64,000 bases of DNA from Centroscyllium fabricii (taxonomy: Eukaryota). The position numbers and the translations under genes are program-made. Below, piece after piece: positions 45,238 through 52,452 of this stretch (position 1 is its first letter; every line of letters starts with the position of its first letter). The stretch spans positions 32,922,001-32,986,000 of the forward strand of contig JBNRSN020000017.1 of assembly GCA_051313645.2 (NCBI GenBank), in the 5' to 3' direction. The notes beneath the pieces are model-generated. The model was not told where the DNA came from. It did no database searches and saw only the letters and a program-made list of their open reading frames with translations.

Positions 45238-45897
45238 CATAGAAACATAGAAGATAGGAGTAGGAGTAGGCCATTCGGCCCCTTGAGCCTGCTCTGCCAT
45301 TCAATGCGATCATGGCTGATCATTCAAATTCAGTACCCTGTCCCTGCTTTCTCCCCATATCCCTTTAGCCTTAAGAAATATATCCAACTCCTGCTTGAAT
45401 ATATTTAATGAATTGGCCTCAACTGCCTTCTGTGGTAGAGAATTCCACAGGTTCACCACTCTCTGGGTGAAGAAGTTGCTCCTCATCTCTGTCCTAAATG
45501 GCTTACCCCTTATCCTTAGACTGTGACCCCAGGTTCTGGACTCCCCGACCATCGGGAACATCCTTCCTGCATCTAGTCTGTCCAGTCCTGTTAGAATTTT
45601 ATAAGTTTCAATGAGGTCCCCTCTCATTCTTCTAAATTCCAGCGAGTTCAAGCCCAATCGACTCAATCTCTCCTCATATGTCATTCCTGCCATCCCAGGT
45701 ATCAGCCTGGTGAATCTTCGCTGCACTCCCTCCATGGCAAGTACATCCTTCCTTAGAGAAGGCGACCAAAACTGCACACAATACCCAAGATGTGGTCTCA
45801 CCAAGGCCCTGTACAACTGCAGCAAGACATCCTTGTTCCTGTACTCGAACCCTCTCGCTATGAAGGCCAACATACCATTTGCCTTCTTAACTGCCTT
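45238..45897 (-). mobile_element. CR1 LINE 3' fragment
   Basis: AVKKANGMLAFIARG...[15 protein letters not shown]; tail-A-type 3' UTR. Confidence 0.92.
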
Positions 45898-46215
45898 ATC
45901 ATACTCTGTGTACTCTAGGCCTTGAAAAAAGGCAAGAGGTACTAGCAGGGGTCGAAGGGTAAATACCCTGTGCCAGAAAGGTCCAAGGCTCCTGAGATGT
46001 TGAGTTCCGGGCTCTTTAGTCATAGAACCAGCACGATGCAACGGTCCACTGATGATGAATCAGCTCGAAGAATAATCGGGCCGTTATTGCTATGGCAGCA
46101 TCCGTCAGGCAACTGGGCTGGATCGGGGTAGGGGATGAGGCCGAGGACAAGGCCACCAGTCGAGGGGGGGCCTGGAGTCCACAAACTCCTGCCTCCATAT
46201 TCAGGTAAATTACTT

Positions 46216-46589: not shown

Positions 46590-47218
46590 ACATAGAAACA
46601 TAGAAACATAGAAAATAGATGCAGGAGTAGACCATTCGGTCCTTCGAGCCTGCACCGCCATTTAATGCGTTCATGGCTGAACATGCTACCTTAGTACCCC
46701 ATTCCTGCTTTCTCGCCATACCCCTTGATCCCCCTAGTTGTGAGTATTATATCTAACTCCCTTTTGAATATATTTAGCGAACTGGCCTCAACAACCTTCT
46801 GTGGCAGAGAATTCCACAGATTCACCACTCTCTGGGTGAAGAAGTTCCTCCTCATCTCAGTCTTAAATGGCCTCCCCTTTATCCTTAGACTGTGACCCCT
46901 GGTTCTAGTCTTCCCTAACATTGGAAACATTCGGCCCGCATCTAACTTGTCTAAACCAGTCAGGATTTTAAACGTCTCTATAAGATCCACCCTCATTCTC
47001 CAGAGGATACAAGTTCAGTTGATCCAGTCTTTCTTGATATGTCAGTCCAGCCATCCCAGGAATCAATCTAGTAAATCTTCGCTGCACTCCTTCAATAGCA
47101 AGAATGTCCTTTCTCAATTAAGGAGACCAAAACTGCACACAATACTCCAGGTGTGGCCTCACCAAGGCCCTGTACAACTGTAGCATCACCTCCCTACTCC
47201 TGTACTCAAATCCCCTTG
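46590..47218 (-). mobile_element. CR1 LINE 3' fragment
   Basis: DLIETFKILTGLD...FFTQRVVNLWNSLP; (TATGTTTC)n tail. Confidence 0.9.
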
Positions 47219-47519
47219 TTAAGATAGACGGGCATCGTGCACGTTCACTTTGCATTGTGGCATGAGCTAACAATGGGCTCAACCATCATTTCCGAAAGGG
47301 AAAGGCCAAGCTGAAGTCTGTGATGATCTGAATTAGAAATACGCTAGCTGTTTGCAAGATAGCCCTCGCTCCAATTTGAGTCACTTCAGGTTCAGCTCTT
47401 CCCAGGGCATTAAGTTATGACCCCTCAATTCACAGAGGAAAAAAATAAACTTGCTGTTTCTTGGAAAGTCAAATTGCCAGTTAAAAAGGAAGACTTGCAT
47501 TCATATAGAACTGTATCAT

Positions 47520-48009
47520 GGCCCTGAAGACTGACAGGGGTTCTGCTGTTCATAACTGGGATTTTCAACATGCCTTGTAAAGGATGGAACCGCCATTTGC
47601 CCAGTTCAAGGAAAATGTCACTGGGGTTGGAGGGAAGAGGACAAAGCCAGAGGCAGTGACTCCCTATGGGGGATCTCACCAGGCTGGCACATTCAGGGTC
47701 CGGCATAGTATGGGAGGCTGGTACATGTTCAAATGGGCAGAAATGGACCCCACCTGCGGGCAGGTCAGACAAGCAGCCTGGACCTTTGGGGAAAAAAAAG
47801 GTAAGATCTTTTTTTGAAATCTCAATCGGTCCAGTTACACAGGGGACTGGACTGGACACAATTGGGGTCTGGGAGACCTGGGCAGCCCTTCAGGTGTTAC
47901 GCTATGTGGGGCAGGTGGGCAGTGCAGATGTGCCTACAGTGCCGCTTGTGCTTCCACTCCCCATGCAAATCGGATGCCATCCCACTAACCCTGCAAACTC
48001 CCAGGGACC
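47520..48009. mobile_element. Decayed Harbinger-like MITE
   Basis: AT|GGCCCTGAAGACTGACAGGG ... CCCTGCAAACTCCCAGGGACC|AT. Confidence 0.45.
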
Positions 48010-48205
48010 ATCAGGCCTCAAATGTCTCAGAAACATCCCAAAGCACTTCATATGCAATGAATAACTTTAAAGTGCAGTCACCCTTGTTTTGTGGACATTG
48101 GCAGTCGTCATAGAACATAGAACATAGAACATACAGCACTGTACAGGCCCTTGGGCCCTCAATGTAGTGCCGCCCTTAGTCCATCTCTGATTTTTCCCTT
48201 CCCCC

Positions 48206-51076
48206 CTACTGTTCCTTCCCCTCCATGTACCTGTCTATCATCCTTTTAAAAGCACCCAGACTGTCCGCATCCACTATTTCAGATGGTAGCCTATTCCATT
48301 CCCCTACCACTCTCTGTGTAAAGAACCTGCCCCTGCCATCCCTTCTGAATCTTCCTCCTTGAATCTTGTGCTCGTGTCCTCTTGTTGACGTTCTTCCCGC
48401 CCGGGGAAACAGTCTTTGCACGTTTACTCTATCGATCCCCTTCATCATTTTAAACATCTCTATCAAGTCCCCTCTCTTCCTTCTCCGTTCCAGGGAGAAG
48501 AGTCCCAGCTCCCTCAACCTCTCCTCGTATGACCTTCCTCCCATTCCCGGCAGCATCCTGGTGAATCTCCTCTGCACCCTCTCCAGCGCCTCCACATCTC
48601 TCCTGTAGTACGGTGCCCAGAACTGCACACAGTACTCCAAGTGTGGTCTCACCAGTGACCTGTACAGCTGTAGCATGACCTCCCGGTTCCTAAACTCTAT
48701 TCCCCTGTTGATGAAGGCCAATACCCCATAGGCCTTTTTCACTGCTTTGTCCACCTGGGTGGCAGCCTTCAGTGATCTGTGTACATATACTCCCAGATCC
48801 CTTTGCTCCTCTGCTTCCCTCAGGATTCTGCCATTGACCCTATATTCCCTCTTCCTATTTGCCCTGCCGAAGTGCATCACCTCGCATTTCCCCGTGTTGA
48901 ACTCCATCTGCCATTCTTCAGCCCAGCTCTGCATCCTGTCTATATCCCTCTGAATCTTTCTACCTCCTTCCTCCTCATCCACTTCTCCCCCTATCTTTGT
49001 GTCGTCCGCAAACTTGCTGACCCACCCCTCAGTCCCCTCCTCCAAGTCATTGATGAAGATTACAAACAGTAGTGGCCCCAACACCGACCCCTGTGGTACC
49101 CCACTGGTGACCGGTCTCCAGCCCGAGTATTGGCCATCTACCACTACCCTCTGCTTCCTTTGAGCCAGCCAGTTCTCAATCCATCCCACCACTTTGTTGC
49201 TTACCCCGCATCTCCTTACTTTCCTCATAAGTCGATCGTGCGGGACCTTGTCGAACGCCTTGCTGAAGTCCATATATATGACATCAACCGCCTTTCCCTC
49301 ATCCACACTCCTGGTCACCTCTTCAAAGAATTCTATCAGGTTGGTCAGGCACGATTTGCCCTTAACGAATCCGTGCTGACTGCTTCTGATTAATTCGCCC
49401 CTGTCTAGATGGTCGTAGATCCTGTCCTTCAGGACCTTTTCCATCACCTTTCCGACCACTGAGGTGAGACTGACTGGTCTGTAGTTCCCTGGCGCGTCCC
49501 TGCTCCCCTTTTTAAATATGGGAGCCACATTCGCCTCTCTCCAGTCCTTAGGGACTATCCCCGAGGATAGCGATGATCTAAAGATAGAGGTCAGTGGCTC
49601 TGCGATTTCTTTCCTCGCCTCCCAGAGAATCCTTGGATAAATCCCGTCCGGCCCAGGAGATTTGTCTACCTTTAGTTTCTCCAAAATTTCTAATACCTCC
49701 CCCCTCTGAATATTTACTTCCCCCATCTTTTCCCCTTGTATCTTGAGCTCCCCCTCTGCTTTTAGTTCCCTCTCCTTTGTGAACACGGACGCAAAATATT
49801 CATTTAGTGCTTCCCCAATTTCCTCTGGCTCCGTGCACATTTCTCCGTTGCTGTCTTTGATCGGCCCTACTTTTACCCTAGTCATCCTTTTATTTCTTAC
49901 GTAAGCATAGAAAGCCTTGGGGTTCTCCTTTATCCTTCCCGCTAATGCCTTCTCATGCCCACCCTTTGCCTTCCTTAGCCCATTCTTCAGTTTTTTCCTT
50001 GCTTCTTTGTACTCCCTTCCCGCCCCCTCTGTACTCTGTTTTCTCATTTTATCATATGCTTCCTTCTTCCTTTTTACTAATTGTTCTACCTCTTTCGTGA
50101 TCCATGGTTCTCTCATCTTACCCTTTCTTCCCATCCTACTCGGGACATGCTTGTCCAGGGCTTTCATAATTTGCTCCCTGAACACTCTCCACTTTTCTTC
50201 CGTTCCTCTTCCCTCAAGTTCCCGTTCCCAATTGGTGTTACCTAAATCGTGCCTAACCCTGTCGTAATTTCCCCTCCCCCAGCTGTATACCTTGCCCTGC
50301 CTCTTGCTCCTATCCTTCTCCATTACTATTGTGAACGTCACCGAGTTGTGGTCACTGTCCCCAAAGTGCTCCCTTACCCCCAGTTCTACCACTTGGCCTG
50401 GTTCATTTCCCAGAACCAGGTCCAACGTTGCACCCCCCCTTGTTGGTTCCTCCACGTATTGTGTCAGGAAACCTTCTTGTACGCATTGTAAGAAACTCTC
50501 TCCCTCTGCACTCCTTGACCTACCTAGATTCCAGTCTATATTAGGGAAATTGAAATCTCCCATTATAACTACCCTCTGTCCCTCACATCTTTCCTTTATT
50601 TGTCGCGCAATTTCCTCCTCCACCTCCCTGTTGCTATTTGGTGGTCTATAAAAGACTCCCACTAGCGTTACCGCCCCCTTCCTATTCCTAAGCTCCGCCC
50701 ATACTACCTCCGTTTGTGTGTCCCCCTCAAAGTTTTTTTCTGTAGCCGTCACGTTGTCCTTGACCAGCAGTGCTACTCCCCCCCCGCGCTTTCCTTCCTC
50801 CCTGCTCCTCCAGAAGCTTCTGTATCCCGGGACCCCAATCATCCAGTCCTGTCCCTGCTCCAGCCATGTCTCTGTAATGGCCACCACATCGAAGTCCCAT
50901 GCCGCCATCCATGCCCCTAACTCCCCTGCCTTGTTCCTTATACTTCTTGCATTGAAGTAGGCGCATTTCAGACCCCTTTCCCTTTCCTTTGCCCTTGGTT
51001 CTCCCCCTTTTTTCTCGTTGTTCCCCGGTCTCCCCTCTGTTTCCCTGCCCGTTTCCCTATCCCCCTGGCCAATTAG
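48206..51076 (-). CDS. CR1 ORF2: APE endonuclease and reverse transcriptase (frame open to 51157; first ATG at 50908 lies inside the EN domain)
   Basis: LKCAYFNARSIRNK, VVAITETW, IMGDFN, GDSDH, KSPGPDG, NYRPVSLTS, YMDFSKAFD, SGVPQGSVLGP, KFADD; no stops. Confidence 0.93.
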   Translation of the reverse strand, partial: LIGQGDRETGRETEGRPGNNEKKGGEPRAKERERGLKCAYFNARSIRNKAGELGAWMAAWDFDVVAITETWLEQGQDWMIGVPGYRSFWRSREEGKRGGGVALLVKDNVTATEKNFEGDTQTEVVWAELRNRKGAVTLVGVFYRPPNSNREVEEEIARQIKERCEGQRVVIMGDFNFPNIDWNLGRSRSAEGESFLQCVQEGFLTQYVEEPTRGGATLDLVLGNEPGQVVELGVREHFGDSDHNSVTFTIVMEKDRSKRQGKVYSWGRGNYDRVRHDLGNTNWERELEGRGTEEKWRVFREQIMKALDKHVPSRMGRKGKMREPWITKEVEQLVKRKKEAYDKMRKQSTEGAGREYKEARKKLKNGLRKAKGGHEKALAGRIKENPKAFYAYVRNKRMTRVKVGPIKDSNGEMCTEPEEIGEALNEYFASVFTKERELKAEGELKIQGEKMGEVNIQRGEVLEILEKLKVDKSPGPDGIYPRILWEARKEIAEPLTSIFRSSLSSGIVPKDWREANVAPIFKKGSRDAPGNYRPVSLTSVVGKVMEKVLKDRIYDHLDRGELIRSSQHGFVKGKSCLTNLIEFFEEVTRSVDEGKAVDVIYMDFSKAFDKVPHDRLMRKVRRCGVSNKVVGWIENWLAQRKQRVVVDGQYSGWRPVTSGVPQGSVLGPLLFVIFINDLEEGTEGWVSKFADDTKIGGEVDEEEGGRKIQRDIDRMQSWAEEWQMEFNTGKCEVMHFGRANRKREYRVNGRILREAEEQRDLGVYVHRSLKAATQVDKAVKKAYGVLAFINRGIEFRNREVMLQLYRSLVRPHLEYCVQFWAPYYRRDVEALERVQRRFTRMLPGMGGRSYEERLRELGLFSLERRRKRGDLIEMFKMMKGIDRVNVQRLFPRAGRTSTRGHEHKIQGGRFRRDGRGRFFTQRVVGEWNRLPSEIVDADSLGAFKRMIDRYMEGKEQ

Positions 51077-52092
51077 TTTAAATCCCCCTTTATGGCCGAA
51101 GCGAGTTTCCCACCCAGAATGCTGATGCCCCTTCGGTTCAGGTGCATGCCGTCCACATCATACCGATCCCACTTTCCCCAGAACGATCCCCAATTGTCCA
51201 CGAATCTCATGCCCTCCCTTACGCACCAATCTTGTAGCCACGCGTTTATTCGCTTTCTTTTTTCATTTTTCCTCCCCCCCTCCCGTGGCACTGGTAGGAT
51301 CCCAGAAATTGTGGCATGATTTGTTTTGCCTCTCAGTTTCCTTCCGAGTTCCTTAAATTCCCTCTTAATGTCTTCCTCTTTTTTCCTCCCTATGTCGTTC
51401 GTACCTATGTGTACCACGACCTGTACCTGTTTGCTCTCCCCGTTTAGAGTGCCGTCAACACGGTCCAAGATGTCTTTGACCTTAGCCCCTGGGAAGCAAC
51501 AAACCATCCTCGAGTCCCTTTTGCTCCCGCAAAACCTCGTTTCCATCCTACTCACCATTGAATCGCCCATCACTATTGCTCTCAGCCTTCCCCCTCCTTC
51601 TTTTTGTACCACCTCTTCTGGTCTGGTCACCGAGTTCTCCTCCTCTCGGTCTCCCCCTGCTCGATCTTCCCCCACTTCATGGTTCAGGACTGTATCCCTG
51701 TTGCCGGGGTGACTGTCCCCTGGGGGCCTCGCCCCATCCTCCCCCTCCCTTCTCTCCGACTCCTGCCTGCCCTTCTGCATGGGTGTATGTACCGTCTCCC
51801 CTGGTTGCTTTGTGCCTCCCTCTGCCTCTTTAATGTTTTTAGGTTCCTCCAGGTTCCTTCCCCTTTCCCCATCCTGGACCTGTTTCTCCTCTGCCTTCCT
51901 CTGGACCTTGAGTTTCTTCAGGTCCTGTTCCAGCCCCCTTACTCTTACTATAAGGCGCTGTAGCTGGTTGCATTTTTTACAAATTCTTCCAGCCTGGCTC
52001 CCCTTCCCCCTCCCCCCTTGGAACATTTTGCAGGAGGAGCATCTTCCCATTTTTCTCATCCATCCCCTCACAGTTCCCATGAAATACTGCAT
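51073..52092 (-). CDS. CR1 ORF1 with N-terminal CxxC motifs, coiled coil and SGNH esterase domain
   Basis: CSSC...CKKC; IVMGDS, CCFPGA, VHIGTND, DGMHLN; ends GDLN*. Confidence 0.9.
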   Translation of the reverse strand: MQYFMGTVRGWMRKMGRCSSCKMFQGGRGKGSQAGRICKKCNQLQRLIVRVRGLEQDLKKLKVQRKAEEKQVQDGERGRNLEEPKNIKEAEGGTKQPGETVHTPMQKGRQESERREGEDGARPPGDSHPGNRDTVLNHEVGEDRAGGDREEENSVTRPEEVVQKEGGGRLRAIVMGDSMVSRMETRFCGSKRDSRMVCCFPGAKVKDILDRVDGTLNGESKQVQVVVHIGTNDIGRKKEEDIKREFKELGRKLRGKTNHATISGILPVPREGGRKNEKRKRINAWLQDWCVREGMRFVDNWGSFWGKWDRYDVDGMHLNRRGISILGGKLASAIKGDLN

Positions 52093-52452
52093 TTAAAGTC
52101 CTACCTTAGTCTGTCTTAAACTTCTATAGTTCACCCCTAAAGGTTAGAGGAGGAGGAAGGGTGGGAGTCACTACCATGTAGTGACTCGGGTTTAGCCTCT
52201 GCTTTCCCTATATACCAATACCAGTATAAAGGCCCCTCCCCTTCCTGTTACCCGTCCCCTCCCCTTCCTGTTTCAATCCCCCCTTAAGTGTCCCCAGTCC
52301 AGAGTTCTGCTTGCCCACAGGGCTGCTCCACGACTCCACGCTGGCTTTTTTAAATAGCCCGCGCTGGCCTCTCTGCTGCTGTTCTCGAGCTCCCACAAGC
52401 AGCGATGAAATGAAATGAATATTCAGTTCATTTGCTTTTGGTGGCATTGTTT

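Follow-up and report, generated by a model that had tools for sequence, protein, structure and literature searches.

For elements lacking long terminal repeats (non-LTR elements), the mode of translation of the second open reading frame (ORF) of a bicistronic retrotransposon has been described as an open question of importance (PMC3894237), and it is posed directly by a CR1-type long interspersed nuclear element (LINE) in Centroscyllium fabricii. The element lies on the reverse strand of a 64,000-nucleotide (nt) stretch of contig JBNRSN020000017.1 (positions 32,922,001 to 32,986,000; assembly GCA_051313645.2), hereafter the window, to which all coordinates refer. Its ORF2 lies in the -1 frame relative to ORF1 and overlaps the ORF1 end. 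Comparison of this junction with those of relatives makes it highly likely that ORF2 is expressed through programmed -1 ribosomal frameshifting.

Junction of ORF1 and ORF2

The element and its junction comprise:

48109..52400 (-): CR1-type LINE copy with both ORFs open; 5' end approximate
51073..52092 (-): ORF1, 339 amino acids (aa), with a Cys-rich N-terminus and an SGNH/GDSL esterase at the C-terminus
51127..51501 (-): Pfam Lipase_GDSL_2 match, ORF1 residues 198-322 (E 1e-12)
51076..51082 (-): slippery heptamer U_UUA_AAC, in phase with ORF1; predicted site of the -1 shift
51073..51075 (-): TAA stop of ORF1, immediately 3' of the heptamer
48206..51157 (-): ORF2 frame, 983 codons stop to stop, encoding an apurinic/apyrimidinic (AP)-type endonuclease and a reverse transcriptase (RT)
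50972..51075 (-): purine-rich linker of 35 codons, ORF2 frame open and without ATG, which would join esterase to endonuclease
50906..50908 (-): first in-frame ORF2 ATG (codon 84), 15 codons downstream of the motif-I Asn
48109..48133 (-): 3' tail of 7-nt tandem repeats (3.6 copies), short repeats instead of poly(A)

The 3' end of ORF1 reads GAT TTA AAC TAA on the reverse strand. The initial annotation of the window had placed U_UUA_AAC at 51082-51076, in phase with ORF1 and immediately ahead of its stop, and ORF2 in the -1 frame, open from 51157 and without an ATG until 50908; coordinates and frames were reproduced exactly, and the junction peptide of the predicted fusion is the one given there. 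Its further claim, that initiation at the first ATG would truncate the endonuclease, agrees with the Pfam endonuclease match, which begins at ORF2 codon 67, 17 codons before that ATG, and with the alignment of the first Met to about residue 31 of the L1 endonuclease. Because the first ATG lies inside the endonuclease domain, an AUG start at 50908 would drop endonuclease motif I. The motif-I Asn of AP-type/L1 endonucleases is catalytic.

In the proposed mechanism, most ribosomes would end at the UAA and release the esterase-bearing ORF1 protein (ORF1p), and a minority would slip back one base on U_UUA_AAC, with the Leu and Asn tRNAs re-pairing on UUU AAA. Shifted ribosomes would then read through the open linker to yield an ORF1p-linker-endonuclease-reverse transcriptase fusion of about 1281-1295 aa (the ATG at 52092 gives 1295 aa and that at 52050 gives 1281 aa; a later ATG, at 52080, 52059 or 52050, may be the true ORF1 start).

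By its domains and tail the element is an esterase-type CR1 LINE, its ORF2 tree being built without reference clades, and its junction matches published consensuses labelled CR1, insofar as excerpts of these extend. The esterase motifs GDS, N and D-x-x-H are present in ORF1, which also holds a predicted coiled-coil-like segment, read by eye. Within ORF2, the endonuclease (Pfam Exo_endo_phos; about 50959-50348) matches L1 endonuclease structures and is followed by the reverse transcriptase (RVT_1; about 49513-48836); no protease domain was found in the copy with Pfam. Sawshark and sawfish proteins are the closest named ORF1 homologs, and those of rays, sharks, birds and a turtle the closest named ORF2 homologs among the best 120 of 1115. 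A target-site duplication was looked for in the flanks of the copy and not found, and the window holds no second copy of the junction.

Conservation of frame phase and slip site

Relatives were drawn from metagenome contigs with an esterase pattern that ends ~50 nt before the junction; because the pattern excludes the junction, the 63 loci recovered were not selected for it. CR1-type ORF1 was scored in 26 of them, and five of the 26, in which the ORF1 end was disrupted or an endonuclease motif was not within reach, were left out. Three further loci that resembled unrelated hydrolases (L026, L036 and L046; hidden Markov model scores of 56-58, no ORF2) were dropped. In viral contigs, none of eight pattern matches was confirmed as a CR1 relative and two further loci were both non-CR1. 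The ORF2 phase was -1 in 17 of the 21 scorable loci, 0 in two and +1 in two. After these were collapsed to 15 families, each represented by an intact copy, ORF2 was at -1 in 14. A canonical in-phase heptamer lies inside the overlap in 12 of the 15, against an expectation of 0.66 derived from the in-phase frequency in the remainder of these loci (9 of 4378 and 37 of 7643 codons):

UUUAAAC: L004, L005, L043
GGGAAAC: L028, L037, L044
AAAAAAC: L025, L039, L047, L054, L061
UUUUUUA/GGGUUUU: L065

The heptamer type differs between families; therefore slipperiness is conserved, not a peptide. Three heptamer types found are among the four named as most shifty for mammalian ribosomes (PMC5009743). In the AAAAAAC class the slip site sits 10-11 codons ahead of the ORF1 stop, and in L044 the ORF1 tail is ~125 residues longer, with the heptamer still abutting the stop. 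Between the slip site and a point six codons short of the motif-I Asn, no stop and no ATG occurs in the ORF2 frame of any of the 14 -1 families or of the window copy, over spans of 13-82 codons in which other frames have up to 18 stops (the sites in L045 and L059 were picked after the fact).

The same signature is found at the ends of ORF1 proteins. An x-L-N terminus is present in 10 of 11 strong homologs. A larger set of 161 proteins, including the best 150 of 6154 profile-search matches, was reduced to 105 with the catalytic motif and a tail of 20-45 residues (56 fragments or aberrant ends were left out), and 70 of the 105 end in a slip-compatible dipeptide, compared with a background of 5.4%:

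Terminal dipeptides compatible with an in-phase X_XXY_YYZ: LN 56, GN 11, KN 2, NL 1

The residue preceding terminal LN is NNU-encodable in 55 of 56 proteins (exceptions expected, 16%; P 8e-4, with rows that are not independent), and that preceding GN is Q, A or P, NNG-encodable in all 11. LN-ending proteins include one from a snake and one from a swallow, and the non-LN classes may represent invertebrate-like lineages.

The -1 phase, the in-phase heptamer, the open linker and the position of a downstream G run are all conserved. Judged from these comparisons, the -1 frameshift signal is probably functional in esterase-type CR1 LINEs, and the strategy appears to be general for them; from the same comparisons we infer the ribosomal shift, its efficiency and the role of the fusion as the functional ORF2 product.

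Several points weigh against this interpretation. The families are related, so that P values are optimistic, including that of about 5e-7 (at a generous 0.052 each) for a canonical site in six of the eight deep lineages other than that of the window; these come from an ORF2 tree of 15 rows, without L004 and L025, which were too short, in which deep forks are unresolved and about nine deep lineages are seen. Family representatives are intact copies, and phase or overlap is disrupted in four L009-family copies: three of the four phase exceptions are near-copies of the L009/L043 family, and L042, another near-copy, is at -1 without overlap. Three of the 15 families have no canonical heptamer, namely L045, which carries G_GAU_UUU, a known plant-virus shift site (PMC5009743), L059, which has no heptamer, and L010, which is in phase 0 with an upstream ATG. 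L028, L037 and L044 have an ATG 2-4 codons before the motif-I Asn. Among ORF1 proteins, 35 of the 105 ends show no terminal slip dipeptide; in many of these such a dipeptide occurs a few residues before the end, by itself weak evidence. Pseudoknot-free folding gives no stable RNA fold after the slip site in the window copy (z -1.0 to 0.9) and none in most relatives, which is unusual for efficient eukaryotic -1 frameshifting. Finally, 23 of 62 predicted ORF2 proteins, including the close shark-like relative P0169, have an internal Met at least seven residues upstream of motif I, and duck ORF2 entries begin 17 residues upstream of it.

Start codons in the ORF2 linker

These internal Met residues are compatible with termination followed by reinitiation, in which ribosomes would restart within the linker, on an AUG or a near-cognate codon, to give a separate ORF2 protein (ORF2p). 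Translation of L1 ORF2 is attributed to reinitiation. The non-LTR element SART1 provides a precedent with its overlapping stop and start codons (PMC3894237), and in the window copy the near-cognate codons ATT at 51073, ACG at 51052 and CTG at 50971 are in the ORF2 frame. Reinitiation does not, however, predict a phase fixed at -1 in 14 of 15 families, the overlap, or an in-phase heptamer that changes type, and all 14 of the -1 families lack an ORF2-frame linker ATG. The linker Met positions are scattered over a range of 7-92 residues ahead of motif I, and upstream of these Met residues the frames remain open for 5-74 codons. The 62 proteins counted are those with an N-terminal extension of 25-130 aa among the best 120 of 1115 matches (the regular expression used found motif I in 86 and missed some that have it), and the predicted set is biased towards frames having a start codon. 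As the general source of ORF2p, reinitiation is improbable; at a linker AUG it is possible in some families, where it may coexist with frameshifting.

Several database ORF2 entries among the same best 120 start after motif I. No naturally fused longer ORF1 relatives were found among 366 candidates, which argues only weakly in either direction. The gene model P0178, from a ray, passes from the esterase to the endonuclease by entering the -1 frame at the junction; as a prediction on a possibly mutated copy, it shows only that the linker is open. A second model, P0162, skips the junction and was not used.

Candidate stimulators of the proposed frameshift

The 3' stimulator of a -1 shift is commonly a stem-loop or pseudoknot placed 5-9 nt downstream, in some cases a protein-binding motif or a stop codon. 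Two features downstream of the heptamer may influence the proposed shift:

51061..51065 (-): G5 run, a candidate unstructured 3' stimulator, conserved in position and starting 11 nt past the heptamer
51043..51065 (-): four-tract G-quadruplex motif, present here and absent in the relatives tested

In six of the seven families in which the heptamer adjoins the stop, a single run of G5-7 starts 10-11 nt past it. The run is shared by the UUUAAAC and GGGAAAC classes although their linkers are otherwise dissimilar, and the chance of a run of at least five G starting at those two positions is about 0.1-1% per locus. L005, L009 and L043 each have one isolated G6 run, and the same position is occupied in vertebrate CR1 consensuses, read by eye in the excerpts covered. 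L044, the sole stop-adjacent family lacking the run, has the only significant hairpin (z -3.9) among 19 rows, as if one stimulator had been replaced by another. No G run follows the slip site in the AAAAAAC class. An adjacent stop codon is known to matter in the frameshifting of pea enation mosaic virus (PMC5009743). For the stop-adjacent class, the G run at +10/11 together with the adjacent stop are the best candidate stimulators suggested by the sequence comparison, in preference to a G-quadruplex. A more far-reaching proposal is that esterase-type CR1 LINEs, both vertebrate and invertebrate-like, would make ORF2 only as a -1 frameshift fusion and that, in the stop-adjacent class, a protein bound to the unstructured G run at +10/11, a host G-run binder or ORF1p itself, would drive the shift. 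This proposal is tentative and, on balance, unlikely.

That frameshifting is mainly stimulated by an RNA G-quadruplex at +11, as the initial annotation had suggested, is improbable. The four-tract motif ten nt past the heptamer is indeed present: it is the sole canonical match to the four-tract regular expression on the sense strand of the element, ViennaRNA places a quadruplex there, and in synthetic constructs frameshifting is stimulated by such structures (PMC5009743). Nearby, at 51058, the most frequent variant in the family is the gain of a G, not the loss of one, and there are no common variants at 51059-51146 among those listed, which come from aligned contigs and are weak evidence. As a conserved stimulator, however, the motif is not supported. 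Of 15 relative loci, none has a three-quartet motif starting within 16 nt of the slip site and only two have a two-quartet motif at stimulator distance, and vertebrate CR1 consensuses, read by eye in excerpts, mostly show two G tracts. The 103-nt linker is 43% G, and a four-tract motif arises in 56% of its dinucleotide shuffles, or is completed in 14% of shuffles in which the first G5 is fixed; the G4Hunter score of the motif (1.8) is only the seventh peak in this G/A-rich element. The action of a quadruplex might be confined to this family, or be intermolecular. What endures of the earlier proposal is the predicted -1 shift and ~1295-aa fusion, for which the comparative sequence evidence is strong, with the -1 phase retained in 14 of 15 families and the slippery site in 12; the quadruplex does not endure, and only the first of the downstream G-tracts is kept across relatives.

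Other RNA features were considered at the junction. A hairpin enclosing the slip site was rejected (z 0.9), as was a long-range partner for the G run at about 48505 (-21.2 kcal/mol; the next duplexes reach -20.4 and -20.0), and no common partner position was found among relatives. There is no Rfam match at the junction. In L061 and L039, the segment 10-35 nt past A_AAA_AAC is C-rich and loosely resembles a poly(C)-binding-protein site.

Origin of the heptamer

The heptamer might instead be a by-product of a conserved Leu-Asn C-terminus of ORF1p, with ORF2 translated from a separate or spliced RNA. In 40 of 56 proteins the spacing between the catalytic D-x-x-H and terminal L-N is indeed constant. 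A constraint on the peptide does not account for the fixed synonymous positions, all seven L-N-ending loci using T-TTA-AAC, nor for families in which the peptide becomes G-N, K-N or F-L and the site is still slippery, lying internally in the K-N class. The possible splice-acceptor AG is TAA here and in L028. This explanation is very improbable. Slippage of RNA polymerase II, adding a base to some transcripts and fusing the frames in RNA, can practically be set aside: the AAAAAAC and UUUUUUA classes hold six-base homopolymers, but UUUAAAC and GGGAAAC have runs of three bases only, and the site is phased to ORF1 codons, which are invisible to a polymerase.

Relation to known systems

The arrangement proposed for CR1 resembles that of retroviral and LTR-retrotransposon gag-pol and of the coronavirus U_UUA_AAC site, where an in-phase X_XXY_YYZ lies at the end of the upstream ORF (PMC5009743). 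As in gag-pol, the CR1 polymerase ORF is in the -1 frame without a start of its own, and the heptamers are of the most shift-prone types. Unlike gag-pol, CR1 is a non-LTR element, and most families show no stem-loop after the site under pseudoknot-free folding. As Pfam shows no protease in the copy, the fusion would remain uncleaved except by a protease of the host. A parallel in position is the arterivirus PRRSV, in which CCCANCUCC, 11 nt 3' of the shift site, is bound by nsp1beta and a poly(C)-binding protein (PMC5009743). CR1 likewise has a short unstructured motif 10-11 nt from the shift site; in contrast to the viral motif it is a G run, absent from the AAAAAAC class, and the likeness is one of position alone.

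Among non-LTR elements, L1 and SART1 share with CR1 a bicistronic RNA and ORF2 at a low level (PMC3894237). In these elements ORF2p is a separate protein initiated at the stop or beyond it, whereas in CR1 ORF2 overlaps ORF1 in the -1 frame, a slip site is present and an AUG is lacking. A frameshift in a non-LTR retrotransposon is known from the gag of Drosophila HeT-A; unlike the CR1 case, this shift occurs within a gag-only element and involves no reverse transcriptase or ORF1-ORF2 fusion (PMC5009743). The esterase-type CR1 LINEs described in excerpts of PMC13343379 and PMC3905857 have the same SGNH esterase ORF1, followed by AP endonuclease and RT. In the portion of the PMC13343379 supplement covered, TTTAAACTA occurs 23 times, 17 of them, by eye, at the ORF1/ORF2 junction of CR1 or Crack consensuses, with labels that read as alligator, crocodile, giant tortoise, bowfin, bullfrog, coelacanth, elephant shark, rays, catshark and dogfish; as it was the motif that was searched for, the count has no denominator. 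A search of the same kind of consensus anchored on the endonuclease instead gave six rows in the part covered, and the heptamer or its visible tail is present in all three in which the junction is visible.

No report of CR1 frameshifting was found in the full-text literature, a search that lay outside the CR1 papers of the 1990s, Kapitonov and Jurka 2003 and Repbase notes; a frameshift may already have been proposed there on the strength of the ORF overlap. The word 'frameshift' is absent from the main texts of PMC13343379 and PMC3905857, and 'CR1' from the 300,000 of 449,034 characters covered of the 2016 frameshifting review PMC5009743, where the sole non-LTR passage covers HeT-A and TART. 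The excerpts of the 2013 review of non-LTR protein biogenesis list reinitiation, internal ribosome entry sites and 2A, and not frameshifting (PMC3894237), and CR1 frameshifting is not treated in the passages covered of PMC11835228, PMC4120745, PMC4255032, PMC6609765 and PMC5408684. What is proposed here is a known recoding mechanism in a class of elements for which no description of it was found. CR1-group elements are the dominant retrotransposons in most vertebrates (PMC13343379, excerpt). If the proposal is correct, the functional CR1 enzyme would be a fusion of about 1300 aa that unites esterase, endonuclease and RT, and ORF2 annotations starting at the first Met would be truncated. The signal also seems to be without the usual RNA structure; were the shift stimulated by protein, it would be a case of protein-stimulated frameshifting in a genome-resident element, which the host could use to control retrotransposition.

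Neighbouring and minor features

The sense strand of the element is purine-rich (G 35%, A 32%), and 48000-52000 has the largest GC and AT skews of the window. Two ATGs precede ORF1 on the reverse strand (52431 and 52177), near or within the presumed 5' untranslated region; one of them is in ORF1 phase, yet a stop intervenes before ORF1. Just downstream of the element and in the same orientation lie two 3' fragments of CR1 ORF2 from other subfamilies (45310-46059 and 46691-47240, -). Directly upstream is an element resembling a short interspersed nuclear element (SINE; 52860-52453, -), with a tRNA-like head by eye, in which ARAGORN found no tRNA, and a CR1-type tail ending in 8-nt repeats; it resembles the HE1-type SINEs of sharks. 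Three CR1 ORF2 homologs (P0170, P0246 and P0281) are filed in NCBI under bacterial or archaeal names and are probably animal DNA contaminating those assemblies.

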